64,000 bases of DNA from Candidatus Omnitrophota bacterium (GCA_037146775.1 JBAWWL010000007.1:65536-129535); one strand, 5' to 3'. Shown: positions 34,811 to 63,806, numbered from the stretch's first letter. Notes: generated by a model not told the origin, from the letters alone. Numbers and translations: made by a program.

Positions 34811-35240
34811 CAAAATTGAAGCTGAAGCCCGATGTCCACCTAAAAGAGGCGGACATGCCTTATCTATCTCTGCTATAATGAATTACACCAATTTATCTCC
34901 AGAAATAGCGGACATTTTGGACAAATATCGCCGATAAGCCAACCTCTAAAGTCTACAATTTCCTTGTTATTTGCCAGAATCGTACCTATAATAATGATTA
35001 CACAGTAAGAGATTCTCTTATTCCTGTGCCATCTAAGCGGAGTTTTGCTTAATACCCTCCATCGTTTAATGGAGGGTATTTTTTTGTAAAAACTCCCCGG
35101 GTAGGGCGAAGAATCCCGAGGAGCTTCTTGTAAATTTAATTTGTAAATTTACAAGATATATATGGGCGAGTCGGGAGAGAGCCAGCGTTTGCAGCTTTTG
35201 ACTTTATAACCCTCTGTGATAGTATATTGCAGAGGGTTTT
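34811..35240. repeat. approx. 330-bp structured intergenic element, copy 1 (5' hairpin ATGTCCACCTaaaagAGGCGGACAT + core + extra terminator-like hairpins + short CTCTGTGATA..CAGAGGG palindrome)
   Basis: core approx. 85-90 % identical to 39235..39572, 49904..50217 and 57313..57568. Confidence 0.8.
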
Positions 35241-35273
35241 ATATTGATTGAATAATAAGAAAAAAAGGGGTGT

Positions 35274-36506
35274 ATGAATAAAAAAATAAGTGTTATTTTG
35301 CCGTTGATGTTTTTGTTTATTTCTTCATCAATCTTTGCCGAAACTACCATTCTTAAATCAGGCAAAACTATAGAAGGCAAGATACTTGATAAAACAGATA
35401 AATACATCAAGGTAGATACCGAAGGTGTACCTATAACCTACTATCTTGAAGATATTGCAAGTATTGATGGGAAAGCCATAAACACATTCAAACAGCATTC
35501 TCCCGACCAAACATTTGTTCCTTTAACTGCCAATAGTGCCGAAGAATATGTTAAAAACGGCGTTGCCCAATACAAACAAGGTAACATTCCTCGAGCCATA
35601 TCCGATTTTAGCAAAGCTATCGAAATTAACCCCAACCTTATAGGCGCTTATTGTGGGCGCGGTATCGCTTATGCCTCGCAAGGCAATTTTTCCACAGCCA
35701 TTTCAAATTATAATAAAGCTATTGAGATAGATCCTAAATATCCCAGAGCTTATAACTATCGCGGTTCTGCCTATGCTCTGCAAGGCGATTTTGCCAAAGC
35801 TATCTCTGATCTAAATAAAGCCATTGAGATAGACCCTAGCTATGCACAGGCATATTGTGAGCGTGGGCTTGCTTATAAAGGACAAAACAATTTTGCCCAA
35901 GCCATATCAGATTACACCAAAACTATTGAAATAGATCCTAAGTATGTAGAAGCTTATAATTATCGTGGGCTTATTTATTTCGCAGAAGGCAATTTCACTC
36001 AAGCTATTTCAGACTATACCAAGGCTATCGAGGTAGATCCTAACTATGCAGAGGCCTATTACGACCGTGGTCTTGCCTACAAAGAACAAAACAATTTTGT
36101 CCAAGCCATCTCTGATTTTAACAAAGCCATTGAAGTAAATCCTAAATATGTAAATGCTTATTGTGGGCGTGCTCTTGCCTATGGTTTGCAAGGCAATTAT
36201 ACTAAAGCCGTTTTTGATTTTGATAAAGCGATTGAAATAGATCCTAACTATGCAGGTGCCTATGAGTATCGTGGGCTTCTCTATGCCAGACAAGGCAATT
36301 TTGCCAAAGCTATCTCTGACCTAAATAAAGCCATTGAGATAGATCCTAAATATGTAAATACCTATAAAGATCGTAGTATCGTCTATTTTAAGCAGAAAGA
36401 TTTTGCTAAAGCCTGGGAAGATGTACACAAGGTTGAGAGTTTAGGGGATAAGGTTGACCCTGGGTTTATTGAAATGCTTAAAAAAGCCTCTGGTAGGGAA
36501 AAATAG
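35274..36506 (+). CDS. TPR-repeat protein with signal peptide
   Basis: at least 9 tandem TPRs (AISD..KAIEIDP.Y..AY..RG.AY). Confidence 0.8.
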   Translation: MNKKISVILPLMFLFISSSIFAETTILKSGKTIEGKILDKTDKYIKVDTEGVPITYYLEDIASIDGKAINTFKQHSPDQTFVPLTANSAEEYVKNGVAQYKQGNIPRAISDFSKAIEINPNLIGAYCGRGIAYASQGNFSTAISNYNKAIEIDPKYPRAYNYRGSAYALQGDFAKAISDLNKAIEIDPSYAQAYCERGLAYKGQNNFAQAISDYTKTIEIDPKYVEAYNYRGLIYFAEGNFTQAISDYTKAIEVDPNYAEAYYDRGLAYKEQNNFVQAISDFNKAIEVNPKYVNAYCGRALAYGLQGNYTKAVFDFDKAIEIDPNYAGAYEYRGLLYARQGNFAKAISDLNKAIEIDPKYVNTYKDRSIVYFKQKDFAKAWEDVHKVESLGDKVDPGFIEMLKKASGREK

Positions 36507-36612
36507 ACTTACTTTATCGACAAAACTAATAATTTCTTATCAATCTTTTCCGCTTCTTCTAGCATTAACCAGTTACAAAATTCGTCCAACCCGGGGAGCC
36601 ATAAAAAAATTA

Positions 36613-36645
36613 CCCCACCCATTTCGGGTGGGGTTTATTTTTTAT
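36613..36645 (+). terminator. rho-independent terminator
   Basis: 'ccccacccatttcgggtggggtttatttttt'. Confidence 0.7.
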
Positions 36646-36771
36646 GTTTCTTTAGATTGGTTCGAACCTCTGTGAGAGTCTAAACGAAACTTAGGGTTTT
36701 GAAGCGAAGCACACAAAATTCCTTAGTTGAGTTATCCTCTGTGAGGGCTATCTGGGTAGCTATTGCCTTCT

Positions 36772-36862
36772 TAACCCTCTGTGATAATATAGTGCCAGTT
36801 TCACCGCAAAGTGATTGACTAGGCTAACAGGTCACCCTGTTGAGTAGACAGCCAGAGGGATT
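36772..36862 (+). promoter_or_regulatory. long version of the palindromic promoter-associated motif (AACCCTCTGTGATAATATAgtGCC...CAGAGGG) upstream of 36900
   Basis: same motif as at 39484..39572 and 50127..50217; contains the extended -10-like 'TGTGATAAT'. Confidence 0.5.
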
Positions 36863-36899
36863 TTTATTTAGGGTAAAATAATAAAAACGGAGGTGCGTT

Positions 36900-37313
36900 A
36901 TGAAGATAGAAAAAATAATTATTACGGCACTGGCGGTTTCGCTGTTCGGTGCGATTTTTTCAGGCGTTACCTGTGGATGGTTGTTTAATTGGGTATATAA
37001 ACTTGAGCCGACAAATGTTTGGAAGCCGATGGATGGCCCGCCTGACTTAATATTTTACATAGGAAGTTTCTTGCTCAACATAGTTCTCGCAGTTGTTTAT
37101 GCGTTACTCCGCAATGGTATTCCTGGGAAAAATAAATTAACCAAAGGCCTCATTTTCGGATTATGTGTTTGGGCTGTTGGTATGTTACCCGGGATGTTTT
37201 CAACCTATTCTTTTATGACAGTGGCTATTGGCACTGTCATTTATTGGACTATTTTAGGTTTGGTTGAAATACCGATTAAAGGTCTAATAATCGCTGCCAT
37301 ATACGGCGAATAA
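36900..37313 (+). CDS. small integral membrane protein
   Basis: four predicted hydrophobic helices; RBS 'aacggaggtg'. Confidence 0.5.
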   Translation: MKIEKIIITALAVSLFGAIFSGVTCGWLFNWVYKLEPTNVWKPMDGPPDLIFYIGSFLLNIVLAVVYALLRNGIPGKNKLTKGLIFGLCVWAVGMLPGMFSTYSFMTVAIGTVIYWTILGLVEIPIKGLIIAAIYGE

Positions 37314-37443
37314 TGGATTATTATGCAGTTTTTCCATTTCCCCAAACATCAACCAGTTGCGAAATTTGTCCCTGCCTACCGACAGGCAGACAATCAGGGG
37401 AGCCATGTCTTTTTACTATCCGAAATTTTCGGATATATAAAAA

Positions 37444-37476
37444 AACCCTCAAACCGGAAAGATTGAGGGTTTTTTA
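37444..37476 (+). terminator. rho-independent terminator
   Basis: 'aaccctcaaaccggaaagattgagggtttttt'. Confidence 0.7.
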
Positions 37477-37611
37477 ATTTTTGACCTAGAAAATAATCGC
37501 AATAAATACCTCCGTAAATATAGCTTGAAAAGGTACCAGTTTCGATATATATAATATGGTAGAATAATCGTAAGATTATAAATTTTCTATTCTTTAGAAA
37601 GGAGAATTGAT

Positions 37612-39153
37612 ATGTTACGTAAAATCATAATTATAAGTTTAGCTGTTTTAGCCGTGACGAATTGTATAGCTTCCCTTAAAACATATGCCGCTGTCCCAAA
37701 AGACATACTTAAAGTTCAAGATCCTAAAATAAAACCGATCAAGGATGGGCAAGACAAAAAGCCTCCATTGCCGGATCTGGTTGCCGCATATGTCGATCTC
37801 AGACCTTGGGGTGGAGGCGGCGAGCGTCCGATCTCTACCGGTGCCAACTGTGGCATCACCGGCTCTATCCGCAATAACGGCGCCGAAATGGCGCGTAATG
37901 TTAATTACGAGCTATTGCTGGATGGGCGAGTTATCCACAGTGGCCGGGTAGACATTATGGGCGGCGCGAGCGTACAGGTGAATAGTGAATTTAATCTTGC
38001 GTTCAATGAGCCCGGCAATCCGGAAGTCACGCTGGTAGTGGATGGACGAGGCGATATTGCCGAGAGCAATGAATCGAACAATAGAGTGAGCCGGCGAGCT
38101 ACGGTGCAGAATTTAGATGATCTTGTGGAGGTGACCGGGGTTGAATTTATGGTTAATGGACGGGCAGTTGAAGAAACTATTGTTGGTCAGAGCGGCACGC
38201 TTAGGGTTCGGGTGCGTAACAACAGCCGCCAGGCGCTGAGTAATGTGAGTGTTTCAGGAAGACTGCAAGATACGCAGGATCAGTTCCAAAGGCTTGATCT
38301 GGCGCCTAACCAGGAACAGCAAATAGAGTTTTCTAATTTAAGTTTCCGGAGTCCGGGCGATAAACTCATAACCGGCAGAGCTTCGCTGTCGAACAACCGC
38401 GAGGACGCTAATCCCCGCAATGATTGGATGCAGCGGGGGATGACCGTACGGATGAACGAGAATAGGGAGCCGGATCTGGTTGCCGCATATGTCGATCTCA
38501 GACCTTGGGGTGGAGGCGGCGAGCGTCCGATCTCTACCGGTGCCAACTGTGGCATCACCGGCTCTATCCGCAATAACGGCGCCGAAATGGCGCGTAATGT
38601 TAATTACGAGCTATTGCTGGATGGGCGAGTTATCCACAGTGGCCGGGTAGACATTATGGGCGGCGCGAGCGTACAGGTGAATAGTGAATTTAATCTTGCG
38701 TTCAATGAGCCCGGCAATCCGGAAGTCACGCTGGTAGTGGATGGACGAGGCGATATTGCCGAGAGCAATGAATCGAACAATAGAGTGAGCCGGCGAGCTA
38801 CGGTGCAGAATTTAGATGATCTTGTGGAGGTGACCGGGGTTGAATTTATGGTTAATGGACGGGCAGTTGAAGAAACTATTGTTGGTCAGAGCGGCACGCT
38901 TAGGGTTCGGGTGCGTAACAACAGCCGCCAGGCGCTGAGTAATGTGAGTGTTTCAGGAAGACTGCAAGATACGCAGGATCAGTTCCAAAGGCTTGATCTG
39001 GCGCCTAACCAGGAACAGCAAATAGAGTTTTCTAATTTAAGTTTCCGGAGTCCGGGCGATAAACTCATAACCGGCAGAGCTTCGCTGTCGAACAACCGCG
39101 AGGACGCTAATCCCCGCAATGATTGGATGCAGCGGGGGATGACCGTACGCTAA
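37612..39153 (+). CDS. secreted CARDB-domain protein containing a perfect 699-bp (233-aa) tandem duplication
   Basis: signal peptide; 'PDLVAAYVDLRP...VVDGRGDIAESNESNN' is the CARDB end-motif; 37771..38469 is identical to 38470..39153; GC approx. 55 % against approx. 36 % in the flanks. Confidence 0.65.
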   Translation: MLRKIIIISLAVLAVTNCIASLKTYAAVPKDILKVQDPKIKPIKDGQDKKPPLPDLVAAYVDLRPWGGGGERPISTGANCGITGSIRNNGAEMARNVNYELLLDGRVIHSGRVDIMGGASVQVNSEFNLAFNEPGNPEVTLVVDGRGDIAESNESNNRVSRRATVQNLDDLVEVTGVEFMVNGRAVEETIVGQSGTLRVRVRNNSRQALSNVSVSGRLQDTQDQFQRLDLAPNQEQQIEFSNLSFRSPGDKLITGRASLSNNREDANPRNDWMQRGMTVRMNENREPDLVAAYVDLRPWGGGGERPISTGANCGITGSIRNNGAEMARNVNYELLLDGRVIHSGRVDIMGGASVQVNSEFNLAFNEPGNPEVTLVVDGRGDIAESNESNNRVSRRATVQNLDDLVEVTGVEFMVNGRAVEETIVGQSGTLRVRVRNNSRQALSNVSVSGRLQDTQDQFQRLDLAPNQEQQIEFSNLSFRSPGDKLITGRASLSNNREDANPRNDWMQRGMTVR

Positions 39154-39234
39154 AGGCAAATGGAATATAGGAGAAAATATAGAGTAAGGGGCACATAGAA
39201 CGGTATAGCTGGGTTAGACCTTGCCCTGGCCGTT

Positions 39235-39572
39235 ACAAAAATTGAAACTTGAAGCCAAATGTCCACCTAAAAGAGGCGGACATGCCTTATCTATCTCTGC
39301 TGTAACGAATTACGCCGATTTATCTCTAGGAATGACGGACATTTTGGACAAACATTGACCATAAGTCAACCTCTAAAGCCTACAATTTCTTTGTTATTTG
39401 CCCAAATTATACCTATAATAATAGCTGTAGCAGTAAGAGATTTTCTTATTCCTGTGCCACCCAAGCGGAGTTTGTCTTTTTAACCCTCTGTGATAATATA
39501 TTGCCAGCCTTGCTGCAAAGTGATTGGCTATGCCAACAGGCCACCCTGTTGGTAGGCGGGCAGAGGGTTTTG
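39235..39572. repeat. approx. 330-bp structured intergenic element, copy 2
   Basis: see 34811..35240; ends with the long palindromic promoter-like module. Confidence 0.8.
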
Positions 39573-39617
39573 TTATTTTAGAACGGAAGAGGTAGAATTA
39601 AAAAAAAGGAGTTACGA

Positions 39618-39971
39618 GTGTGGGATAGAATTGATCGGAGAGAGTACCAAAGATTAATAGGCGAATATTTTGTTTACTATAAAATTAAAGATTCATCAGG
39701 AAGCTATAATCTCACTCGTACCAAAAATATCAGCAAAGGAGGTATGTTGCTTTCAGTGAATGAGCCTTTTGAAAAAGGAAAGAGTATGGCACTCATCATA
39801 AAAGGCCCTTTTGTCTTGGGAGCTGCCATAGAGACGACGGGGGTAGTTATTGAATCCAGAAAAATTGACAGAGGTTCTATTTATGAAACAAGAATTAAAT
39901 TTTCTAATATCAACGCAAAATTTCTCGACAAATTAGATGAATTTATCAAACGAAATTCCAAAGGTCGTTAG
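39618..39971 (+). CDS. PilZ-domain protein (putative c-di-GMP binding)
   Basis: 'RREYQR' (RxxxR) and 'TKNISKGGMLL' (D/NxSxxG) motifs. Confidence 0.55.
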   Translation: MWDRIDRREYQRLIGEYFVYYKIKDSSGSYNLTRTKNISKGGMLLSVNEPFEKGKSMALIIKGPFVLGAAIETTGVVIESRKIDRGSIYETRIKFSNINAKFLDKLDEFIKRNSKGR

Positions 39972-39973
39972 AG

Positions 39974-40067
39974 AAAAAAGAGATAGCGGGGTCAGACCTT
40001 CAGATGTCAGATAGATTGACAAAAAAGAGATAGCGGGGTCAGACCTTCAGATGTCAGATAGATTGAC
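39974..40067. repeat. 47-nt tandem direct repeat x2 (aaaaaagagatagcggggtcagaccttcagatgtcagatagattgac)
   Basis: two perfect units; the 'ggggtcagaccttcagatgtcagatagattg' core recurs at 42737, 44372 and, inverted, at 57105. Confidence 0.85.
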
Positions 40068-40070
40068 AAA

Positions 40071-40165
40071 GACCAAAAAATAAAATAGGGTCAGAGTCGT
40101 TTTGCTAAAGAGAGTGGAATAAATATCAGCTTCTAATTTTTGAAAATATAATTTCAATTTTCGCT
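40071..40165. repeat. approx. 95-nt dispersed repeat (gaccaaaaaataaaatagggtcagag...aatataatttcaa)
   Basis: approx. 90 % identical to 57015..57105. Confidence 0.75.
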
Positions 40166-40197: not shown

Positions 40198-42735
40198 ATG
40201 GTTGGCAAGACCTGGCCCCATTATTTCATATTGACAGGTTTTTTCCCTCAAGAAAAGGAGACAAAAGCTATGAAACAAACTGTCGCAGCATTTTTAGGAG
40301 TCATCCTTGTTTGTTTTTATCTCTTGCCATTGAACGGGCAAGAGATCGCAGATTCAAACTCTAACAAATATGAAAAGTTTCCGGAACGCGTGCGTAAGAT
40401 CGCTGAGGGAATGGAAAAACTAGGACTTAGTCCGAAAATTGATTTATCTCCGAAAATCGGAGAAGGAAGCGAAGGATATATTATTAATGCGAAAATTGGA
40501 GAAGAAAAGCCCGGAGAAAAATTTACTAATATCACTGTTTATGTCGCGACTGAAGATAGTATTCAACAATTTCTTGTTTTTCCGTTGGTGGGTTTCGTTG
40601 TTGAACCGCGTGAGGAGTTGACGCCTGCGCCGCTCTGGACAGGGAAGATAGCTGATCGTTTTAAAGGTGATGGACTGGGCACAACTTATGGTGCGTATAT
40701 CACTCCCGGAGTAGGCGGCCACATAATCGGAGTGGCCAATGCGTACGCCATGAAAAACGATGTAATAGTGAGTGTCAGAATGGAGCGGTGCGATACCAAA
40801 CCACGTTCATATTACTCAGGTATCTCAGAATTTGACGGAGAGAAGAGAGCCATTGAACTTTCGGCCGGGTTAAAAGATGACAGCAGAAACTGGATAGATG
40901 CTTTAGTTAAGATCATTGATGGTTTAGGCGGGGTGAAAATTTCTGTTTTTGATGCCAATCCGCAGTACAATGACAAGTTTGATTTTACTGACAAAGCGGT
41001 GCTTAAGGATTTCCCCAGTAAGGAAGCATATTTGCAGAAGGCTGCTTACGTTGTATCTGTTGCAAACACGAAAAGGTCCGGCGCTGCCGCGGATGGTGTC
41101 AGCCTGCTCCTCTTACTTGCATCTGTCGACTACGAAGGTATAGCCACTTTCACGCTGGAGGGGGATGATTCGCCGGGCACCATCCATCCAATCGGTACTG
41201 ATTTTGACATGAAATTGCGCGAGAAGAAAATTAGAACTCCTACGCTCGTGTTAGAGAGAGGACCGGATTCAAAGCAGTATTGGGCCGCTGTTCTCTATCG
41301 TCCGCCGGACAATTTTGGCCGCGGGGACGGTACAAGAGAAGTTCGTGTGACGCTCTTATTGGAGAATACAGGGGGCAAAAAAATAGAGGACAATAAAGAT
41401 TCTAGTTCAAAACGAGGGGAGTGCATGATACGGCTCATACGTCCGCCGGTTGTCCTTGTCCATGGCACGTTTGATGCGCCGATACCGTGTTGGGACACCC
41501 CGGATCAACATAGCAGCTTTACAATGAAAAAACGGCTGGAACAGGAAGGATTCAGACCGTTTATGGTGGACTGGGTGGAAACGAACGGATATAAAGATCC
41601 AAGCGCGTTTATCTCAAACTGCGAGACTGTGTGGAAAAATAATGGAGGGATCCACGAGGCACTGGAGACTTTTCGTAAGGACAACTTTGCGGCCACACAG
41701 GCGGATCTTGTCTGTCACAGCCAGGGCGGTGTGATCGCACGCAGGTACGTGAAGGGGACGGTATCGGAGACGAAGCTTGCCGACGACGATTACCATTATA
41801 CTAATCCGCGCGAGTGCTCACGCGGCGCGTGCTACTATCATCGTCTTAATAACTTCGCGAAAGGCGACATCCACCGTCTTATTACGATCAGTGCTACGCA
41901 TATGGGAAGCGACATTTGCTCTCTGTTAAATGTCTTTATCCAGCTTCGCAGTGAGGGGATGAAGTTAGCATCATGGGACTCGCTTTGCGCAAAACTTGCC
42001 CTTTTAGGCGGCGGTTATCAGGGAAACTGCACGAGTGATTGGATGGTTGTCAATTTTGCCTATTATACGAAAGAGTTTATCAGGCGGATGGGAAATGGTG
42101 AGCTTACAGGCGCGTATAAGGATCAGATCCCTGGTAGTCCGGCACTTCAGGCCATCGGAAAAACACTAGTTCCTTCGCATGCCATCGCGTGTACCGCTGA
42201 GGATAAAGATTTGATGGATTTTGATGGATCATACGAGGACCGAATGGAAACGATCTGGGAAGGTTCCAGTCGCGGCCTCTTGCTGGAGGCGTTTCGCAAG
42301 CTTGGGCAGAATGAAGATGCTGATGACCTTGCGCGAAGAGTGGACGAACAGGAGAGGGCGGAAGGCCTTGCGGCGGAAATTGTCAAGCTTAAGGTTATGC
42401 GGACGCATAGGATGGCGAATGCCAGAAGATTTCGTGCGGCAGTTTTTGGCAACAACCCGAATGACTGCACTGTCAGGAGGGAAAGCTCGCTGGGAGGGTT
42501 ACCAGAGCAATATACGACAACGATCCCCAACATCCTTCATGGTTACGCGCCGTGGTATAGCGCTGTGCAAGAACGCGTTGTACAGCTCCTTAAAGATGAC
42601 GGCGGCAAGTTTTGTTCAGCCGGGTTTCCGCAGGCCGGTGTGATGCCGCGCAATATCCAGTATATAGGACCATCTGTCATTGGCCCGGAGCTTGAAAAAG
42701 GTGTTGATCAAGGTTCTTTGCCTGTGGGACAGTAA
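40198..42735 (+). CDS. large secreted protein with a C-terminal alpha/beta-hydrolase (lipase/esterase-like) domain
   Basis: signal peptide after the internal Met (MKQTVAAFLGVILVCFYLLPLNG, RBS 'aaggag'); 'PPVVLVHGTFD' and nucleophile elbow 'LVCHSQGGVIARRY' (GxSxG); GC approx. 50 %. Confidence 0.6.
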   Translation: MVGKTWPHYFILTGFFPQEKETKAMKQTVAAFLGVILVCFYLLPLNGQEIADSNSNKYEKFPERVRKIAEGMEKLGLSPKIDLSPKIGEGSEGYIINAKIGEEKPGEKFTNITVYVATEDSIQQFLVFPLVGFVVEPREELTPAPLWTGKIADRFKGDGLGTTYGAYITPGVGGHIIGVANAYAMKNDVIVSVRMERCDTKPRSYYSGISEFDGEKRAIELSAGLKDDSRNWIDALVKIIDGLGGVKISVFDANPQYNDKFDFTDKAVLKDFPSKEAYLQKAAYVVSVANTKRSGAAADGVSLLLLLASVDYEGIATFTLEGDDSPGTIHPIGTDFDMKLREKKIRTPTLVLERGPDSKQYWAAVLYRPPDNFGRGDGTREVRVTLLLENTGGKKIEDNKDSSSKRGECMIRLIRPPVVLVHGTFDAPIPCWDTPDQHSSFTMKKRLEQEGFRPFMVDWVETNGYKDPSAFISNCETVWKNNGGIHEALETFRKDNFAATQADLVCHSQGGVIARRYVKGTVSETKLADDDYHYTNPRECSRGACYYHRLNNFAKGDIHRLITISATHMGSDICSLLNVFIQLRSEGMKLASWDSLCAKLALLGGGYQGNCTSDWMVVNFAYYTKEFIRRMGNGELTGAYKDQIPGSPALQAIGKTLVPSHAIACTAEDKDLMDFDGSYEDRMETIWEGSSRGLLLEAFRKLGQNEDADDLARRVDEQERAEGLAAEIVKLKVMRTHRMANARRFRAAVFGNNPNDCTVRRESSLGGLPEQYTTTIPNILHGYAPWYSAVQERVVQLLKDDGGKFCSAGFPQAGVMPRNIQYIGPSVIGPELEKGVDQGSLPVGQ

Positions 42736-42736
42736 C

Positions 42737-42886
42737 GGGGTTAGGCCTTCAGATGTCAGATAGATTGCAAAAACGTAATTATTTATAAACCAAATCCCAC
42801 CCCGGAGGTGGGCTTTGGTTTTAAGACAATATATTAAATAAAATTAAAAACTAATCCCAATGGCGATGATCCTCTTGATGAATTTT
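42737..42886. repeat. composite approx. 150-bp repeat, copy I (ggggtTaggccttcagatgtcagatagattgcaaaaacgtaatt... + hairpin aaccaaatcccaccccggaggtgggctttggtt + frameshifted 5' fragment of the Zn-ribbon mini-gene)
   Basis: approx. 90 % identical to 44372..44521. Confidence 0.8.
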
Positions 42887-44264: not shown

Positions 44265-44370
44265 GATGAAAAAAATATTAGTCTTAACCTTCCTGTTGTT
44301 AATTCCTATTATTATCCATGCTGAAACCATAAAATTCAAATCAGGTAAAACAGTTGAGGGGAAAAGATAG
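44265..44370 (+). pseudogene. truncated N-terminus of a TPR-lipoprotein paralogue (MKKILVLTFLLLIPIIIHAETIKFKSGKTVEGKR*)
   Basis: homologous to the N-terminus of 35274..36506 (AETTILKSGKTIEGK); reading frame ends exactly at the start of repeat copy II. Confidence 0.45.
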
Positions 44371-44371
44371 T

Positions 44372-44521
44372 GGGGTCAGACCTTCAGATGTCAGATAGAT
44401 TACAAAAACGTAATTATTTATAAACCAAAGCCCACCTCCGGGGTGGGATTTGGTTTAAAGCCATAGAGTAAACAAAATTAAAAATTAACCCATGCCCGAC
44501 GATCCGTTTGATGAATTTTAA
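44372..44521. repeat. composite approx. 150-bp repeat, copy II (includes the 9-codon 5' fragment MPDDPFDEF* of the Zn-ribbon mini-gene)
   Basis: see 42737..42886. Confidence 0.8.
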
Positions 44522-48910: not shown

Positions 48911-49447
48911 ATGAAAAAAATACCCAGACTTTTAAAATCACTTTTTTTCATGTTTGTATGTTTAGGTATATCAGGTTGTGTCACTGTCCCAACTGGATTC
49001 TTGAAACCCAATAAAGATTATCTAGAAAAGAGACAATTACAGATAAGACAATATGATACAACCGATCAGGAAAAGATTATAACTTCCGTTGCCGGGGTTT
49101 TACAAGATTTGGGTTTTACTTTGGATGCAAGTGAAACGCAAGTCGGTTTTATCGCAGCTTCAAAAAAAGCTGATGCAACAAACTTGGGCCAAGTTTTCTT
49201 TGTAGCATTGCTGGGTGGTGCTAACGCTGTTGGAAGCTGCGATAAGTCCCAAATTATTAAAGCTTCAGTTATTACTAAGCCTGGCTTAGATGGCAAGAAA
49301 ACAGTTGTCCGGGTTACATTCCAACGAGTTGTATGGAATATGCGAGGTGAAATTAGTAGGGTGGAAACTCTTAAAGAACCAGTACTGTATCAAAATTTTT
49401 ACGATAGCTTATCTAAGGCAATATTTTTGGAGGCCCAGCAAATATGA
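48911..49447 (+). CDS. lipoprotein, paralogue 1
   Basis: lipobox 'GISGCV'; paralogous to the next gene (shared '...RQYDTTD...YQNFYDSLSKAIFLEAQQ'). Confidence 0.55.
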   Translation: MKKIPRLLKSLFFMFVCLGISGCVTVPTGFLKPNKDYLEKRQLQIRQYDTTDQEKIITSVAGVLQDLGFTLDASETQVGFIAASKKADATNLGQVFFVALLGGANAVGSCDKSQIIKASVITKPGLDGKKTVVRVTFQRVVWNMRGEISRVETLKEPVLYQNFYDSLSKAIFLEAQQI

Positions 49448-49878
49448 AGAAATTAAGAAATTATTTTGGCACCATTTTTGTTTTATTAATGATTGTTATA
49501 TTGTCTGGATGCGCAACTACTGCCGCAAATGCGCTTATGAGTAAAGAAAGCCAGGTAAAACTAAGAAGTATTCAGACAAGAGCCTTTGATACAACTGATA
49601 AGAAGAAAATGATGCAAACGGTAATAAGTACAATGCAAGACTTAGATTTTGTTATTGATAAAGCCGATTTTATGCTCGGGTCTGTTACTGGTTCAAAGTT
49701 TCTCGGATATGAGGTTGTTGCTATGACTGTAACTGTAAGACCTAAAGGCGAAAAACAATTGTTAGTAAGAGCAAACGCGCAATATGGGATTAAATCCGTA
49801 GAAGATCCTGTAACCTACCAAGATTTCTTTACTGCTTTAGAAAAAGCCATATTTTTAACAGCCCAACAAGTTGACTAG
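49444..49878 (+). CDS. lipoprotein, paralogue 2
   Basis: lipobox 'ILSGCA'; its 3' 160 nt are duplicated at 57127..57290. Confidence 0.55.
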   Translation: MKKLRNYFGTIFVLLMIVILSGCATTAANALMSKESQVKLRSIQTRAFDTTDKKKMMQTVISTMQDLDFVIDKADFMLGSVTGSKFLGYEVVAMTVTVRPKGEKQLLVRANAQYGIKSVEDPVTYQDFFTALEKAIFLTAQQVD

Positions 49879-49903
49879 TAATAAATTTCCCTTAAGAATG
49901 GCA

Positions 49904-50217
49904 AATATCCACCCAAAAGAGGCGGACATGCCTTATCTATCTCTGCTATAACTAATTACGCCAATTTATCTCTTAAAATTACGGACATTCTGGACAAATA
50001 TCGCCGATAAGTAAATCTTTTAAGGCCGCAATTTCCTTGTTATTTACTCAAATTATGTCTATATTAATAGCTGTAGCAGCAAGAGATTTTTTTGGTACTG
50101 TGTCATTCAAGCGGAGTTTGCCTTTTTAGTCCTCTGTGATAATATATTGCCAGCCTCGTCGCAAGGTGTCGGCTAGGCCAACAGGCCACCCTGCTGGGTA
50201 GAGGTGGCAGAGGGTTT
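49904..50217. repeat. approx. 330-bp structured intergenic element, copy 3
   Basis: see 34811..35240. Confidence 0.8.
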
Positions 50218-50253
50218 TATTTTTTTGGATATAAAGCAAAAAGGAGGTTAGGT

Positions 50254-50511
50254 ATGCAAGAGCAAGAGATCGGAGCCGTTGACCATTTCTTTAGTAAGAT
50301 TTCTGTCGGCATAATCAAGCTAAGCGGCGTGCTTAAGCTGGGAGATACTATTCATATCAAGGGTAAACAGGCGGATTTTTCTCAAAAGGTCGAGTCGATG
50401 CGGATAGAGTTCAATAACGTGACCGAGGCAAAAGAGGGCGATAAGGTAGGTATAAAAGTCATACAGCCTCTTCACGCCAACGATAAAGTATACAAGGTGC
50501 TTGACGCATAG
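50254..50511 (+). CDS. hypothetical small protein; an in-frame TAG is followed by 84 further sense codons
   Basis: RBS 'aaaggaggt'; beta-barrel-like 'GVLKLGDTIHIKGK'; the frame remains open from 50512 to 50757 in a GC-rich stretch. Confidence 0.4.
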   Translation: MQEQEIGAVDHFFSKISVGIIKLSGVLKLGDTIHIKGKQADFSQKVESMRIEFNNVTEAKEGDKVGIKVIQPLHANDKVYKVLDA

Positions 50512-50742: not shown

Positions 50743-50931
50743 TCAGAACCGAGGCAATAGAGAACCGCTATATAATTTCTCGGTATCTTCAAGCATCAAC
50801 CAGTTGTAAAATTCGTAATGAGACTTGGATTTTTTTACAAAAAAATCTTTAGTCGAATTATCCTCGAAGAGGATCCAGCCTATACGAGCAAGGGGGTAGT
50901 CAATTTTTTGCACTTGACCAATATTTACCAT
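50743..50931 (-). CDS. hypothetical small protein (62 aa) carrying the conserved 'EFYNWLM..EKL' segment
   Basis: same segment (KFRNWLMFGEMEKL) is encoded on the minus strand at 37290..37407 and as a relic at 36563..36602; conservation is at the protein rather than the nucleotide level. Confidence 0.35.
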   Translation of the reverse strand: MVNIGQVQKIDYPLARIGWILFEDNSTKDFFVKKSKSHYEFYNWLMLEDTEKLYSGSLLPRF

Positions 50932-52499: not shown

Positions 52500-52500
52500 T

Positions 52501-55133: not shown

Positions 55134-55235
55134 GAGAGTTTTTCCTTCCGTTTTAATGATGAGGGTTCCCTCTGGATATAACATTTACGCCGTGTGACCT
55201 TTTATCCCGGGAATTAAAAAAAGAAATAAAAAATA

Positions 55236-57122: not shown

Positions 57123-57126
57123 TTTT

Positions 57127-57290
57127 TTACTATGACTGTAACTGTAAGACCTAAAGGCGAAAAACAATTGTTAGTAAGAGCAAACGCGCAATATGGGATT
57201 AAATCCGTAGAAGATCCTGTAACCTACCAAGATTTCTTTACTGCTTTAGAAAAAGCCATATTTTTAACAGCCCAACAAGTTGATTGATAA
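57127..57290 (+). pseudogene. duplicated 3' fragment of lipoprotein gene 49444..49878 (MTVTVRPKGEKQLLVRANAQYGIKSVEDPVTYQDFFTALEKAIFLTAQQVD*)
   Basis: approx. 99 % nt identity to 49725..49880, immediately upstream of repeat copy 4, as at copy 3. Confidence 0.7.
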
Positions 57291-57312
57291 TGATGTTACC
57301 TCCCAAGAATAG

Positions 57313-57568
57313 CAATATCCATCTAAAAGAGGCGGACATGCCTTATCTATCTCTGTTATAACGAATTACGCCAATTAATCTCCGAGAATAACGGATAAAT
57401 ATCGCCTATAAACCAATCTCTAAAGCCTGTGTTTTCCTGTATAGGGTTCGAACCGTAAAGGGAGCTTGAGGGAAATAAATTTCCTTCAAGTCATCCGGGT
57501 TTCTCTGCAAGAAGGGGGAGTCGTTGCTTTTTTGACTCTTTGTGATACTATATATTTCAGAGGGTTTT
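57313..57568. repeat. approx. 330-bp structured intergenic element, copy 4 (divergent 3' half, ends with the short palindromic promoter-like module)
   Basis: see 34811..35240. Confidence 0.75.
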
Positions 57569-57602
57569 TTGGATTAATAAATAAGGTAAGCGGGGGGTTG
57601 CA

Positions 57603-57953
57603 ATGCCAAAAGGTTATGGTTGGATGATTTCATCAAAAAGTGTTGTAAAACACCGAATTGGTATAAAACAGTATAAGCTTGATAAACATATGGGAGTGGA
57701 TCTTCCCGACCAGTGTACATGGATGGTTTATCCTACAGTTCAGAAAACAGTAGTGTTGATGCTTAATGATGGTCCAAAAAGAAGCAAGCGCCCATGTTTT
57801 ACGCCAGTCAATAGTAGTTTAACCTGCAAAGAAGCTCTTAAGTTATCCGAACAGCTACGTAAAGCAGCTAAAGCTTCAAAAGAATGCCCAGCTGGAGAAA
57901 AGAAAAGAATGGAAAATGTATTGAAAGATATACGGAAAAATACTAAAAAGTAA
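57603..57953 (+). CDS. hypothetical basic protein
   Basis: 116-aa ORF downstream of the palindromic module; RBS 'gcgggggg'. Confidence 0.45.
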   Translation: MPKGYGWMISSKSVVKHRIGIKQYKLDKHMGVDLPDQCTWMVYPTVQKTVVLMLNDGPKRSKRPCFTPVNSSLTCKEALKLSEQLRKAAKASKECPAGEKKRMENVLKDIRKNTKK

Positions 57954-58039
57954 ACGGAGAATCTGTCCCTTAAGCCCTCTACGGTAATATATCGTAGAGG
58001 GTTTTTGTTTAGAGTAAAATAAAAATAGAAGGAGAGTGT

Positions 58040-58471: not shown

Positions 58472-58490
58472 ATAAAAAAGGAGGTAAATT

Positions 58491-58982
58491 TTGAAGACAA
58501 TTTTTATTTTTTGGTTGTTTTTGTTTGCTTTAAGCGCGGTTGTCTATAGCGAACAGGTAAGCAGGATTGAATTAAATGATGGCAGCGTAATTAATGGCCA
58601 AATAGTTTCTTATATAAATGGAGTTTATACTATAAATACCGGTACCCTTGGAGAAATAAAAATAGAGGCAGCTAAGATTTCTAAGATTGAGACAGCAAGC
58701 GCTTCTTCGTCTAGTACGTCCGTGAATCCCGACGCCCAAATAGGTAATATCAGTAAATCGCAAGTCGATAGCTACCGGCAGACAATAATGAGCAATCCGG
58801 AAAACGCGTCTATCGTTACGGGGTTAGCAACAGATCCTGAAATCCAAGAGTTAGCCAAAGATCCGCAGATTATAGATGCGGCAAAAACAGGCGATATTCA
58901 GGCTTTGATGAAAAACGAAAAATTCATGAGTATCATCAACAGCTCTAAAATGAAAGAAGCCATCAAAAAACTCAAGCAATAG
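58491..58982 (+). CDS. secreted hypothetical protein
   Basis: signal peptide (IFIFWLFLFALSAVVYS); RBS 'aaggaggt'. Confidence 0.5.
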   Translation: MKTIFIFWLFLFALSAVVYSEQVSRIELNDGSVINGQIVSYINGVYTINTGTLGEIKIEAAKISKIETASASSSSTSVNPDAQIGNISKSQVDSYRQTIMSNPENASIVTGLATDPEIQELAKDPQIIDAAKTGDIQALMKNEKFMSIINSSKMKEAIKKLKQ

Positions 58983-59137
58983 CTTTTTTTAATCCTCTGC
59001 GATACCGCATTGTCATCTATCCAAACGCTTCGCGGCAAGGCCTTGGGGGTTGGATGAGACTGCCAAAGGTTTTAATTTTCTGCTAATATTTTAAATGATT
59101 TCATGATTACTCAAATGTGTTTAGGTGCGTTTGATAG

Positions 59138-59153
59138 AGTGAAAAATTTCACT
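59138..59153. promoter_or_regulatory. Rex operator box 1 (aGTGAAaaatTTCACt)
   Basis: matches the Rex consensus TTGTGAA-N4-TTCACAA in its half-sites GTGAA/TTCAC; upstream of rex. Confidence 0.6.
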
Positions 59154-59275
59154 GATTATTGAAATATAAAAGTATTCATAAACCATTCATTTATATATGG
59201 TAGTGCATTTTTAGCTAAAATTCATATAAAAGCCGATAATAAAATACTTGACAGAAAGGAAAAAATGTGTTAAAA

Positions 59276-59292
59276 AGTGAAAAAATTCACTG
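59276..59292. promoter_or_regulatory. Rex operator box 2 (aGTGAAaaaaTTCACtg)
   Basis: second GTGAA-N4-TTCAC palindrome 13 nt upstream of the rex start; consistent with autoregulation. Confidence 0.6.
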
Positions 59293-59304
59293 ATAAAGAG
59301 GTCT

Positions 59305-59937
59305 TTGGGATTTATGAAACTATCAAATCCAACAATTGAGAGAATTTGTAAGATTTTTGGCTATCTTGACCTTTTAGACAAAAAAGGAATTGAGTTTGTT
59401 TCTTCGCGCGAACTTGCTAAGGCTAGCGGTGCTACTGAGTATACAGTACGCAAAGACATAAGTCTTTTAGGAGCTAGCCGTCACGATCGCAAGGGTTATA
59501 AGGTAAAAATTTTGAAAACAGAATTAGGAGAAACTTTCCATTTAAATAAGAAACGCAAAGCTTGTATTGTCGGCTTGGGCAGGCTAGGTACGGCTCTTCT
59601 TGATTATGAAAAATTTCAGGAAGATGGATTTGAAATCGTAGCGGGATTCGATAGAAGTATAAACAAAATTGAGCGCTTATGTACGCATATTGACGTTTTT
59701 CCCGTAAGCTCACTTGCGGAGGTCATTGCGCAGCGCGGTATTGAGCTGGGTATTATCGCGGTGCCGCAAGAATCCGCTCAAGAAGTTGCCGATAAATTGA
59801 TTGAGGCAGGGGTTAAGGGAATTTTAAGTTTTTCTCCGGAAAAAATTAATGTACCCAAGGATATTATGTATTTGGACATAGATTTTACCAGTTCGTTGAG
59901 GTTTATCGCGGTTAAATTTTCGATGGGGGAAGGATAA
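59305..59937 (+). CDS. rex: redox-sensing transcriptional repressor Rex
   Basis: N-terminal winged helix 'SSRELAKASGATEYTVRKDISLLG'; Rossmann 'KACIVGLGRLGTALLDY'; 'GILSFSP' C-terminal region. Confidence 0.85.
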   Translation: MGFMKLSNPTIERICKIFGYLDLLDKKGIEFVSSRELAKASGATEYTVRKDISLLGASRHDRKGYKVKILKTELGETFHLNKKRKACIVGLGRLGTALLDYEKFQEDGFEIVAGFDRSINKIERLCTHIDVFPVSSLAEVIAQRGIELGIIAVPQESAQEVADKLIEAGVKGILSFSPEKINVPKDIMYLDIDFTSSLRFIAVKFSMGEG

Positions 59938-60078
59938 TTATTAACATAGATTCCGTTTCGTCCTTATGCGCCAAAATTATGTTTCATAATTTCGGCGGGC
60001 TTAACGGGATTAATTCGGCCAGGTAATTTTTCATCACCTACGGTTTGAAAAATTACGGCCTCATTAAGGAGGTGTGGT

Positions 60079-61161: not shown

Positions 61162-61308
61162 ACAATTAGTTTCATTAGGGGTGTTTCCGGGCGCCTTGTT
61201 ACCCGAAAAATCTCTTGCGATATTTTTCGGGAGCGTCTCGGAAGTTAATTCGACTATAACTTTTTTTGTTCGTCTTGCTCACAAAAAACTAAGTCTCATT
61301 AAGGAGGT

Positions 61309-62499
61309 GTGGCTATGTATAAGGTGATGAAACTTAATAATATTGCAGTGGAAGGTTTGGCGCTTTTACCGCTTGATCAATATGAAGTTGGAACTGAAAT
61401 TACGCATCCCGACGCGATTATCCTGCGTAGTTTTGATATGCAAAAAATGGATTTACCCGCTACGCTTCTTGCGGTAGGAAGAGCCGGTGCCGGCGTCAAC
61501 AATATTCCGGTCGAGAAGTGTTCAGAGCGGGGAATTGTTGTTTTTAATACGCCCGGCGCCAATGCGAATGCGGTTAAAGAGCTCACCATTACCGGGATGC
61601 TTCTTGCCTCTCGCGATATCTCGGGTGGCATAACTTTTGCCAAGTCTCTTCTGGGTAAGGGCGAAGCAGTCCCGGAGCTGGTTGAAAAAAATAAAAGTAA
61701 ATTCGCGGGAGTAGAGCTTTTAGGAAAAACCCTCGGCATTATTGGCCTTGGTAAAATCGGCGTGATGGTTGCAAATAGCGCGACAGATTTAGGTATGCAA
61801 GTTATGGGCTATGATCCATATATTTCTGTTGAATCAGCTTGGGGGCTCTCGCGCCAAGTCCAACGTGCGACGAGTCTAGATATGTTGGTTGCCGCAGCGG
61901 ATTATATTTCAATTCATACGCCTTTAACCGATGCAACGCGAGGAATTCTTAACACAGATAAATTTTCACGCATGAAGAAAGGAGTGCGTATACTTAATTT
62001 TTCACGCGGGGGTATTGTAAACAACGACGATTTAGCTTCTGCAATAAAAAATGGTATAGTAGCCTGTTATGTTACCGATTTTCCGGACGATGAACTGCTT
62101 CATATGGATAAGGTGATTGCTGTCCCACATCTCGGTGCTTCTACTGAGGAAGCGGAAACTAATTGTGCGATTATGGTAGTAAAACAGATGCGTGATTTTC
62201 TTGAAAACGGTATTATTAAGAATGCAGTGAATTTCCCTGATTGTAGGCTTGAACAAAATTCAAATGTGCGGTTGATTGTAATGAACAAGAATATACCAAA
62301 TATGGTGGGCCAGGTTTCAACAGTCCTTGCTAAATCCGGGATTAATATCATAGAAATGGTGAACAAGAGTAAGGGAAATTATGCCGCCACCATCATTGAT
62401 ATATCCAGCGAGCCCGATGAGAAGATGATAAAAAATATTTCCGATATTCCGGGGGTTGTAAAGGTGAGGCTTCTTAATTTAACAAAGGAACTATTATAA
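61309..62499 (+). CDS. serA: D-3-phosphoglycerate dehydrogenase (D-2-hydroxyacid dehydrogenase family with C-terminal ACT-like domain)
   Basis: NAD-binding 'LGIIGLGKIGVMVA'; catalytic 'ISIHTPLTDATRGIL'; C-terminal regulatory domain; same RBS context as serC (cattaaggaggtgtgg). Confidence 0.85.
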   Translation: MAMYKVMKLNNIAVEGLALLPLDQYEVGTEITHPDAIILRSFDMQKMDLPATLLAVGRAGAGVNNIPVEKCSERGIVVFNTPGANANAVKELTITGMLLASRDISGGITFAKSLLGKGEAVPELVEKNKSKFAGVELLGKTLGIIGLGKIGVMVANSATDLGMQVMGYDPYISVESAWGLSRQVQRATSLDMLVAAADYISIHTPLTDATRGILNTDKFSRMKKGVRILNFSRGGIVNNDDLASAIKNGIVACYVTDFPDDELLHMDKVIAVPHLGASTEEAETNCAIMVVKQMRDFLENGIIKNAVNFPDCRLEQNSNVRLIVMNKNIPNMVGQVSTVLAKSGINIIEMVNKSKGNYAATIIDISSEPDEKMIKNISDIPGVVKVRLLNLTKELL

Positions 62500-62514
62500 T
62501 AAAGAAAACGCAAT

Positions 62515-62559
62515 GGTTACCCGTCAGGCTTTCGGATGCCAGGTATCGTGAGGGTAACC
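62515..62559 (+). terminator. stem-loop after serA (GGTTACCC...GGGTAACC) without a clear U-tract
   Basis: 8-bp perfect inverted repeat with 29-nt loop. Confidence 0.3.
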
Positions 62560-62684
62560 AATAAAACTGTGATTATGCGGACACGATGTGTGTGGCGATC
62601 CGTTTTTTGCCAGCGGTATTTAAAAGTTACCGCTTCTATACTTTACTTTTAAATTTTTAATAGTATACTTACCAAGAAGGAGGT

Positions 62685-63032
62685 GTGTATATGCAGAAAA
62701 TATTTTTAGTAATGTGTTTTTTTGTATTTGTCGGCGGCGTATGCTTTGCTAAACAGTCCACGACATGTAAAACTGCTTCGCCAGCGGCTGCAAGCAAAAC
62801 TTTTACAGGCAAAGTTACTTTAATATCTTTGGGTGATGCCAAAAAAGCAGCAACGTCGGATATAGCTGTAGTGAATGATAAGGGGCAGGAGATGAGTTTT
62901 GCGGTCAAGAAAGGAACTCCTGTCTTTGGCAAAGACGGTAAATCAATTACTTTGGCTGCAGTAGTCAAGGGTAACAAGGTTATTATAAAGTACACAGTAG
63001 GTAAAATCGAGTCTATTACGGTAATTGAATAG
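62685..63032 (+). CDS. small secreted protein
   Basis: signal peptide (IFLVMCFFVFVGGVCFA); RBS 'aaggaggtg'. Confidence 0.5.
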   Translation: MYMQKIFLVMCFFVFVGGVCFAKQSTTCKTASPAAASKTFTGKVTLISLGDAKKAATSDIAVVNDKGQEMSFAVKKGTPVFGKDGKSITLAAVVKGNKVIIKYTVGKIESITVIE

Positions 63033-63224
63033 TAAACGAACTATTTTGTACGTTACGGCAGGCCAAATTATGACCTGCCGTTTTGTTGTAATATCTATCC
63101 AGCCGCTATTTTTTACGATCATCAATCAGTTTTTTAAATTGCTTACCATTTTGAAAGGGAAATTGTCTTTCTCTTCTTCTGTGATAATATATTATAGAGA
63201 ATTGTTGGCTGGCCAGTATGGAAT

Positions 63225-63806
63225 ATGCAAAGAGGAGGGGGTATGAATAGGAGATGGCGAGGATTAATTATTTTTGTTTCATTATTCTTTTTAAATGTAT
63301 GCAACTTGTACGCCGACGAAATGGAAAGTAAGTTTAAAGATATAATTACACAAATTGCAGCAGATCTCCAGGTTGAGTCTTCTGTGGGCAAAGGATTGGA
63401 GAAGGAGAAGGGCGCAGCCATTGAGAACAATCTTGTTGAGTGCCAAAGCAAATTAAAAAGTCTTATAAAAACTAATCCTCAAAGCATTTGGGCTGACGAT
63501 GCTCAGTACGTAATCGCTATCCTAAGTGCAACCAATCCCAAGCAAGAAGCGTTGGAATTAGAATATTTATTGAAAGAGTATCCCAGTATGCACATTGAAG
63601 ATTGGACGCGAGAAGCTTTCGCAATTGCTATGCCTAACCAGAAAATACCATTTGAAGTGATGGTGAGGCTGCAGTTGTGTATGGATTATAAAAAATGTGG
63701 AGATACTGAAAAGCTTAAGCATATCTGCGAAGAATCAATTAAAAAATATCCAGAGAAAGCAAAAATTTTTGAGAACCTTTTACAGGAAACCGATACTGCC
63801 TCATAA
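63225..63806 (+). CDS. secreted hypothetical protein
   Basis: signal peptide; preceded by a variant of the CTCTGTGATAATATATT palindromic module; RBS 'gaggaggggg'. Confidence 0.5.
   Translation: MQRGGGMNRRWRGLIIFVSLFFLNVCNLYADEMESKFKDIITQIAADLQVESSVGKGLEKEKGAAIENNLVECQSKLKSLIKTNPQSIWADDAQYVIAILSATNPKQEALELEYLLKEYPSMHIEDWTREAFAIAMPNQKIPFEVMVRLQLCMDYKKCGDTEKLKHICEESIKKYPEKAKIFENLLQETDTAS

Follow-up and report, generated by a model that had tools for sequence, protein, structure and literature searches.

A putative intrinsic terminator with a nested promoter, reused mostly upstream of predicted envelope protein genes in a Candidatus Omnitrophota clade

Why should one short palindrome precede a whole series of genes for small secreted and membrane proteins in a single bacterial genome? 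The question is raised by a 64,000-nt stretch of DNA from a Candidatus Omnitrophota bacterium (GCA_037146775.1, JBAWWL010000007.1:65536-129535), referred to below as the window. A sequence-only reading had noticed five inverted-repeat modules in it, at 35206-35240, 36772-36862, 39484-39572, 50127-50217 and 57536-57568, and had taken them for a shared operator-promoter or for a common RNA structure in the 5' untranslated region (5'-UTR). All five modules were found at these positions. Our analysis points to another identity, which we consider slightly better than an even bet (a probability of about 0.55): the modules would belong to a bifunctional terminator-promoter cassette, in which a sigma-70-type promoter lies over an intrinsic terminator and which is shared by a clade of Candidatus Omnitrophota. 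We found no paper on such elements in Omnitrophota.

Anatomy of the cassette

About 35 non-redundant copies were collected, by profile search and a covariance model (R1), from the window and from about 200 kb of related DNA, namely the surroundings of pattern matches and of orthologues of two downstream proteins. An alignment of 32 copies anchored on the 5' arm (two copies were mis-anchored by 1-2 nt and were consistent once shifted) gave the consensus GGGGAG-TTT-TTGACT-TTnTAA-CCCTCTG-TGA-TAATAT-ATTG-CAGAGGG-TTTTT, roughly 55 bases long. The inverted repeat, (A)ACCCTCTG...CAGAGGGTT followed by a T-run, is part of this conserved unit, which is asymmetric and larger than the palindrome. The 23-mer by which the motif had originally been named proved to be the exact consensus of the related genomes. 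It has no exact match in the window, where its best matches, at 35212 and 63177, carry one and three mismatches (shuffled sequences expect none).

The elements of a promoter stand in fixed register within this unit. Just upstream of the stem a -35 hexamer is in register in 27 of the 32 copies (TTGACT in 15, TTGCCT in 7, TTGCTT in 3 and TTGTCT in 2), and its TTG is present in 28-30. After a spacer fixed at 16 nt follows a -10 element of the form TAnnAT, found in 27 copies (TAATAT in 23) and in two more after the anchoring shift, with a TG one base further 5' in 28; both elements fall within the upper part of the stem and its loop. These are the features that define sigma-70 extended -10 promoters, i.e. 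a TTGACA-type -35, a spacer of 16-18 bp, TG at -15/-14 and TAnnnT. The TTGACT, the 16-nt distance and the TGTGA-TAATAT of the cassette correspond to the -35, the spacing, the TRTG/TGn and the TAnnnT of that class, although here the spacer and the initial transcribed region are in addition conserved and self-complementary. Comparable promoters occur independently at a 6S RNA gene in the related locus L014 (TTGAAA-17-TGT-TATACT) and at the rex gene of the window (TTGACA-17 with TGTG, TAAAAA). The case for a promoter is therefore stronger than had been supposed, the TG and the -10 being held 16 nt from a conserved TTGACT/TTGCCT outside the palindrome. An extended -10 had been rightly recognised and its hexamer misplaced: it is TAATAT with TGn upstream, not TGTGATAAT. 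A GGGGAG box precedes the -35 by 3-5 nt in about 18 of the 32 copies.

The same stretch has the makings of an intrinsic terminator, an aspect that had been missed. A G+C-containing hairpin of 12-14 bp, AACCCTCTGTGATA/TATTGCAGAGGGTT, is followed on the coding strand by four to seven T residues, and the T-run is present in nearly all copies. The best short hairpins fold with -18 to -21 kcal/mol (z -6 to -7). Pairing of the stem is retained in 93.7% of the cells of the alignment, as compared with 36-60% in slid controls, and none of 500 shuffles reached the observed percentage. Changes on both sides occur at five pairs, a count matched by 2 of 500 shuffles. Examples of compensatory arms are CCGTCTG/CAGACGG in L011, CCCTTTG/CAAAGGG (CCCTTTGTGATA/TATCACAAAGGG) in L004 and CTCTACG/CGTAGAG (CCCTCTACGGTA/TATCGTAGAGGG) at window position 57975. 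The covariation that had been proposed as a check is thus borne out for the stem across the 32 copies; the inner hairpins of the long form described below are not conserved among orthologues. Two G.U wobbles are likewise conserved, as would be expected if the 3' arm has to supply TTG and the 5' arm TGTGA. The half-sites differ in a conserved way at these two positions, and the pairing is valid solely in the RNA of the plus strand. The putative promoter elements overlap the terminator within 35 bp and keep their register in 27-30 of the 32 copies. Taken as a whole, the conserved unit is predicted to be an intrinsic terminator that encloses a sigma-70 promoter of the canonical extended -10 type.

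In long forms of the cassette 50-58 nt of extra G+C-rich hairpins are inserted exactly between ..ATATTGC and CAGAGGG, so that the symmetric CCCTCTG-N13-CAGAGGG of the short form (7-N13-7) becomes a pair of half-sites separated by N70-78. The second hairpin reported earlier, CCAACAGGCCACCCTGTTGG, is present in all three long forms of the window, with an additional hairpin 5' of it. When the three whole modules were folded they gave z scores of -3.2, -3.8 and -1.2, and two of them beat every shuffle. The inner hairpins vary between genomes and between orthologous sites and are therefore not a conserved aptamer; in L017 the inserts occur in either orientation. Half-sites that are 70-78 bp apart argue against a simple dimer operator and for RNA pairing from arm to arm.

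How could a promoter and a terminator occupy the same sequence? A polymerase arriving from upstream would transcribe both arms and the U-run and would then terminate. A polymerase loaded at the embedded promoter would start about 7 nt past the -10, inside the 3' arm. Its RNA would lack the 5' arm, could form no hairpin and would continue through an unstructured leader of 45-70 nt to the next ribosome-binding site (RBS). The predicted leader of the short form is indeed unstructured, and leaders from the inner start are no stabler than shuffled sequences, with the exception of L011. In the long forms the insert would lie at the predicted start point, and the arms would still close the structure for incoming transcripts. 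The start point, the efficiency of termination and the role of the long insert are what we infer from the sequence.

A second geometry, which had also been missed, is seen in relatives of the cassette on more distant Omnitrophota contigs. They consist of GGGGAG, an A/T-rich stretch, hairpin arms such as CCCTCTG...TTGCRGAGGG and a T-tract, and are devoid of TTGACT and TAATAT. In 9 of 11 such relatives the TTGNNN of the 3' arm is followed after exactly 17 nt by TAGAAT, TAAAAT, TATAAT or TAATAT, the spacer being the remainder of the 3' arm plus the T-tract. The same hairpin frame would thus have been kept with the promoter moved outward, TTGCAG of the 3' arm serving as -35 and the T-tract being followed by the -10. 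As a general promoter of the window copies this outer layout was rejected: a TAnnnT 17-18 nt after TTGCAG accompanies the inner signals in a minority of 5 out of 22 short copies, among those of the window in the one at 57975, and the long forms lose the TTG of the 3' arm, which makes an outer promoter impossible there.

Two observations on individual copies may be added. At 745-812 of L011 a cassette is followed after 27 nt by a fluoride riboswitch. The -10 in the loop of this cassette has degenerated, yet a compensatory change preserves the stem; transcription from an outer TTGCAG-17-TAAAAT would begin just before the aptamer. In L020 (10637-10720) and L029 (1700-1778, minus strand) an ATG follows the outer -10 after 6-9 nt (TATAATAAAACTATG, CATAATAATTTTATG), which suggests leaderless mRNAs in some Omnitrophota.

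Distribution and genomic context

The pattern CCTCTGTGATARTATANTGC was scanned exactly in one genome per species (185,579 species), in a metagenome set and in viral contigs. True matches among the species representatives came only from Candidatus Omnitrophota assemblies and from one metagenome-assembled genome (MAG) classified merely as 'bacterium' that shares orthologous genes; the metagenome set contributed a dozen contigs. The viral contigs gave no match, and a phage origin was rejected. Both large scans for the exact pattern yielded few loci; more sequence was obtained through orthologues of two downstream proteins. One Omnitrophota MAG encodes, as WCI77_06970, a protein identical to that of 36900-37313 in the window.

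A called gene lies within 200 nt downstream on the cassette strand in 31 of 36 copies, with its start codon 55-180 nt away in all 31, and no copy lies within a gene; the placement upstream of genes that had been claimed is thereby upheld. Distances to the upstream gene range between 21 and 640 nt. At window 57975, L013:10971, L011:6246 and L020:11802 the upstream stop codon lies 21-55 nt before the cassette, and in L010 the cassette directly follows a tRNA-Asn gene (39-113), whose 3' end forms the GGGGAG box. In these copies the cassette is the sole candidate both to end the upstream unit and to start the next one. At L021:9908 the RBS comes as little as 12 nt after the T-run, and therefore the inner promoter must be the one used.

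Comparison of orthologous sites shows what is kept. In front of the TPR lipoprotein gene the window, L014, L010, L006 and L011 agree in every one of about 45 successive columns between the -35 and the end of the cassette in the T-run, whereas the flanks have a mean identity of 53%. At its TPR-gene site L011 has the long form in place of the short one, with a 52-nt insert exactly between TTGC and AGAGGG.

The reported bias towards small secreted and membrane proteins held up statistically. By a crude predictor, a signal peptide or membrane segment (a hydrophobic N-terminus) was found in the products of 19 out of 27 unique downstream families and of 26 out of 118 genes preceded by 100 nt or more of intergenic DNA (odds ratio 8.4, p 3e-6).

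In the window itself there are three long copies (~90 nt), two to three good short ones (~33 nt) and two decayed ones. All are on the plus strand, with start codons 55-135 nt downstream. Outside the modules the arm 7-mers are neither enriched nor dispersed: the four exact matches of CCTCTGTGATA are confined to modules, as are all but one of the three occurrences of ACCCTCTG and the five of CAGAGGGT. None of the cassettes lies between 1 and 35000, despite several intergenic gaps of 180-1300 nt, so that it cannot be what drives genes in general in this genome.

The short copy at 35198-35240 precedes the TPR lipoprotein gene at 35274. Its -35 TTGACT occupies 35198-35203, its hairpin 35208-35238 (-18.5 kcal/mol, z -6.2), the extended -10 TGA-TAGTAT, in the loop, 35217-35225 and its T-run 35237-35240. 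A generic scan returned 35208-35238 as a terminator and 35198-35225 as a promoter (TTGACT-16-TAGTAT with TG). The long copy at 36763-36865, upstream of the gene for a 137-aa membrane protein at 36900, has TTGCCT at 36763-36768, the 5' arm at 36775-36781, TAATAT at 36785-36790, two inner hairpins, the 3' arm CAGAGGG at 36853-36859 and the T-run at 36861-36865 (z -3.2). That at 39472-39571 (-40.8 kcal/mol, z -3.8) precedes the gene at 39618, whose product matches PilZ in Pfam, and consists of TTGTCT (39472-39477), 5' arm (39484-39490), TAATAT (39494-39499), inner hairpins, 3' arm (39561-39567) and T-run (39568-39571). The third long copy (50118-50218, z -1.2), upstream of the 85-aa gene at 50254, comprises TTGCCT (50118-50123), the 5' arm TCCTCTG (50130-50136), TAATAT (50140-50145), 3' arm (50208-50214) and T-run (50215-50218). 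A short variant at 57514-57570 (-10.6 kcal/mol, z -2.9) precedes the gene at 57603: GGGGGAG at 57514-57520 is followed by TTGCTT (57524-57529), a 16-nt spacer, TGA-TACTAT (TACTAT at 57546-57551), the 3' arm CAGAGGG (57558-57564) and six T residues. GGGGAG or GCGGAG boxes are found in this copy, at 39465-39470, at 50111-50116 and in most related copies.

Three further variants had been listed and fared differently. The copy at 57963-58020, between the genes at 57603-57953 and 58040, has a perfect 15-bp hairpin with compensatory pairs at 57975-58008 (-21 kcal/mol, z -7.1), whose 5' arm begins 21 nt past the upstream stop codon, and a run of five T residues. Its -35 is weak (CTGTCC), TAATAT (57985-57990) lies in the loop without TG, and an outer -10, TAAAAT (58015-58020), follows 17 nt after TCGTAG. 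The stretch before 63225 is a copy of the promoter without the terminator: 63163-63203, upstream of the gene at 63225/63243, has TTGTCT, 16 nt and TGA-TAATAT (63185-63190), a weak residual palindrome (-7.6 kcal/mol, z -2.2) and no T-run. The region after 58982 (58985-59075, plus strand), directly 3' of the gene at 58491-58982, resembles a decayed long form with arms AATCCTCTG...CAAAGGTTTT, a -10 region degenerated to GATACC and no close gene start downstream. Its fold is not better than shuffles (z -0.5; E 0.077), and its membership in the family is doubtful.

The long copies at 39472 and 50118 are fused to the 3' end of a non-coding repeat of about 250 nt; in all, three or four modules form the 3' end of such a repeat, a circumstance that had likewise gone unrecorded. 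This repeat has four copies in the window (34829-35095, 39256-39480, 49902-50126 and 57314-57420), its first ~80 nt are almost invariant (AATGTCCACCTAAAAGAGGCGGACATGCCTTATCTATCTCTGCT...), and TTGTTA-17-TATAAT is conserved in three copies. Each copy ends in a terminator hairpin: two continue into the long cassettes, and a third ends in another terminator, CCCTCC/GGAGGG, at 35051-35080. It might encode a small RNA. In L014 the orthologous cassette of the TPR gene is preceded, at a distance of about 180 nt, by a 6S RNA (562-722, minus strand). The idea that the repeat is a diverged 6S RNA, suggested by this position, was rejected in view of lack of sequence similarity, a weak consensus fold and the lack of an Rfam match. 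A stretch at 49715-49892 is 95% identical to 57124-57301, and the open reading frame (ORF) at 57132-57287 repeats, in truncated form, the 3' end of the lipoprotein gene at 49444-49878, in both cases followed by the ~250-nt repeat. The two regions therefore represent a segmental duplication.

Other repeats adjoin the cassettes. A motif ..CATYAACCAGTTGCGAAATTCGT.. at 36538-36585, 37322-37369 and 50769-50816, which also occurs upstream of cassettes in L004, L006, L010, L011 and L021, recurs 3' of genes and 5' of cassettes; its minus strand resembles a short conserved N-terminus (MLEEAEK../MFGEMEK../MLEDTEK..). A sub-threshold ylbH-leader match was obtained at 36515-36643 on the minus strand (E 6e-4). 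Extra partial 5' arms (CCTCTGTGAG) lie upstream of the 36775 cassette at 36659-36680 and 36734-36746. The first of them is preceded by GGTTCGAACC, which resembles a tRNA T-arm and recurs at 57434-57445; ARAGORN found no tRNA there, and no tRNA or tmRNA in the window.

Further features of the window may be recorded briefly. Within the ORF at 37612-39153 (513 aa, with a signal peptide) 37770-38069 and 38469-38768 are identical over 300 nt (100%); in the protein a ~233-aa unit is perfectly duplicated in tandem, which may be recent or an effect of assembly. A gene-start repeat, AAAATTAAAAATTAACCnATGCCCGACGATCCnCTTGATGAATT, at 514, 1138, 6600, 42834, 44467, 54566 and weakly at 55223, represents the conserved 5'-UTR and N-terminus (MPDDPLDEF..) of a scattered family of small proteins. 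Another intergenic repeat family, AGATAGCGGGGTCAGACCTTCAGATGTC then CCCACCCCGGAGGTGGG, forms bidirectional terminator-like hairpins (39962-40055, 42711-42757 and 44346-44392; compare 42737-42849 with 44372-44484). Between 59100 and 59300, ahead of the rex-like gene at 59305, the TTGACA-17-TAAAAA promoter with its TGTG is flanked by the Rex-box-like palindromes GTGAAAAATTTCAC and GTGAAAAAATTCAC; to judge by these sites the gene is probably autoregulated.

Known relatives and rival explanations

The known kind to which the cassette comes closest is the promoter-coupled intrinsic terminator. Such elements have been mapped in A. baumannii, E. coli and B. subtilis, and their dual function has been shown experimentally (Fletcher, Forrest, ... 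Grainger, bioRxiv 10.64898/2026.08.19.745784). In their preferred geometry the DNA of the stem-loop provides the -35, the -10 is enhanced by the T-tract just upstream of it, and the termination site precedes the start site by about 10 bp. As in the cassette, one short intergenic element between tandem genes ends the upstream unit and starts the next, and stem-loop and T-tract double as parts of a promoter. At the sequence level the relatives in L020, L021, L024, L025, L026, L029 and L030 have exactly that layout. The window-type copies as a rule do not: their promoter is nested, with a -35 that precedes the stem and a -10 that sits in its loop, instead of overlapping in tandem, and the predicted start is ~10 nt upstream of the termination point and not ~10 bp downstream of it. 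The stems of published promoter-coupled terminators are diverse, whereas the cassette repeats a single stem sequence at many genes and across genomes; and those elements were mapped experimentally, whereas the cassette is known from its sequence. The nested geometry and the reuse of one conserved sequence at many genes would be the new features. A further precedent is the LexA site within the yobI terminator, which represses ruvA. There, too, a terminator palindrome overlaps the next promoter, and the palindrome of the cassette may similarly bind a protein, although the long forms break the spacing of the half-sites.

Several points weigh against a terminator with a nested promoter. Both activities rest on consensus and conservation; TAATAT matches TATAAT at 4 of 6 positions only, and the spacer has 16 and not 17 nt. 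The GGGGAG box upstream of the -35, which is found also in the relatives that have no inner promoter, is left unaccounted for. At L025:6568 the cassette stands beside a divergent upstream gene, so that there is nothing to terminate. The long forms would be large multibranched structures and as such slower and weaker terminators. The copies are few and related, and their conservation could stem from recent spread and not from selection. The 70% envelope bias hints at the specificity of a regulon, which would not be expected of a generic promoter. Finally, the sequence of the arms, and not just their pairing, is conserved across genomes and in both geometries, an identity that a plain terminator does not need.

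The last two points are also the ones that speak for an operator, in which CCCTCTG-N13-CAGAGGG would bind a dimeric transcription factor, overlap the -10 and co-regulate an envelope regulon, the hairpin being a by-product or the site doubling as a terminator in the manner of LexA. The symmetric half-sites of the short forms suit this explanation, as does the published precedent. It is nevertheless unlikely, and the shared operator first proposed for the modules was given up as the leading interpretation: the arms covary so as to preserve pairing and not sequence, the half-sites differ consistently at the two G.U positions, which pair as plus-strand RNA only, a T-run follows the palindrome, the long forms retain both arms across their 70-78 bp, long and short forms are exchanged at one orthologous site, and no candidate regulator was identified. 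The envelope bias would likewise fit a promoter for an extracytoplasmic function (ECF) sigma factor of envelope stress, made up of the GGGGAG box and the 5' arm (GGGAGTT-N16-TCTGT). GGGGAG and CCCTCTGT are indeed retained in the relatives without TTGACT/TAATAT, and the spacing is 16-17 nt in several copies. Across the copies, however, it drifts from 14 to 18 nt, GGGGAG is absent from about 40% of them, and the -35 has no AAC motif, the hallmark of most ECF promoters; this explanation is highly improbable.

Recent spread would be the whole explanation if the cassette were a selfish or portable repeat, similar to REP, MITE or BOX elements, whose promoter and terminator signals are incidental and whose conservation reflects gene conversion and youth. 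REP/BIME, the Correia elements of Neisseria and the pneumococcal BOX/RUP are small intergenic repeats that carry promoters or terminators, and the cassette resembles them as a short palindrome with short and long forms that may fold as RNA and affect neighbouring genes. Many near-identical copies occur within one genome and across a few related ones, the build is modular with inserts in either orientation, and other repeats, among them the ~250-nt repeat, the AACCAGTTGCGAAATTCGT motif and the GGGGAG box, form mosaics between the genes. The arms could be the terminal inverted repeats of a MITE or Correia element, and the long-form inserts are indel-like. Yet the 31 copies with a close called gene are all co-oriented at a narrow range of distances, the -35 stands on one side only, neither a terminal GTAG or CGTC tag nor a clear duplication of the target site was found (a RAYT gene was not searched for), the arm 7-mers show no dispersal to other places, and the cassette persists at orthologous sites of several genomes whose flanks have diverged. 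We regard this origin as quite unlikely. The hairpin could, on the other hand, be a 5'-UTR element, an attenuator or stabiliser of the downstream gene, transcribed from further upstream with conditional read-through. The covariation, the constant proximity of the hairpin to the RBS and the TTGTTA-17-TATAAT about 65 nt upstream of three window copies, inside the ~250-nt repeat, agree with this. In the short form, however, the only conserved promoter starts inside the 3' arm, and a transcript with the full hairpin and U-run would terminate, so that the common 5'-UTR structure proposed earlier is not supported there. Neither an antiterminator pairing nor an upstream promoter is common to the copies, whose upstream sequences are unrelated; some begin 21-25 nt past a stop codon or immediately behind a tRNA; orthologues of the long forms do not share their inner hairpins; and Rfam gave no gathering-level match in the window and the related loci. 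We consider such an element very unlikely.

Some other identities were tried and rejected. Within 34700-39700 Rfam had nothing on the modules at E<=5, and the sub-threshold ylbH and PyrR matches do not cover them; a riboswitch or aptamer in the long form is contradicted by inner hairpins that differ between orthologous sites and genomes and by window leaders no stabler than shuffles. DNA uptake sequences (DUS/USS) would be dispersed in both orientations and within genes, whereas the arm motifs are rare and, with one exception, confined to modules. The core sites of an integron attC fail, GGGTT being followed by a T-run and not by purines, and housekeeping genes (serC, serA-like, rex) are interspersed. 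On inspection the consensus has no GG at -24, as a sigma-54 promoter would, and the second half-site of a CRP/FNR-type box is mismatched. A mini-ORF, TTG-ACT-TTA-TAA behind GGGGAG, is present in only about 60% of the copies, with too short a Shine-Dalgarno (SD) spacing.

Significance of the cassette

A bolder interpretation combines several of these strands. The cassette could be the recognition unit of a dedicated system for an envelope/secretome regulon of Omnitrophota. A factor, either a protein or the 3' end of 16S rRNA acting through the SD-like GAGG of the 3' arm, would read CCCTCTG/CAGAGGG and GGGGAG and would switch termination and the nested promoter jointly, and the whole would spread with interchangeable hairpin inserts as a portable 'stop-and-restart' module. 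We offer this as a speculation that is unlikely to be right in full.

If the preferred reading is correct and the cassette is a terminator with a nested promoter, it would be a natural 55-bp part which shields a gene against read-through from upstream and, in one and the same hairpin, sets transcription going again. Its geometry, with the -10 in the terminator loop and the start in the 3' arm, is absent from the coupled layouts just described in model bacteria. The concept of coupled promoters and terminators would be extended to an uncultured phylum of very small cells, in which two alternative overlaps would have evolved on one hairpin frame. Its practical value hinges on transcript mapping. 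For annotators the cassette provides a handle on the promoters and the boundaries of transcription units in Omnitrophota, and the genes behind it indicate a possible regulon of the cell envelope.

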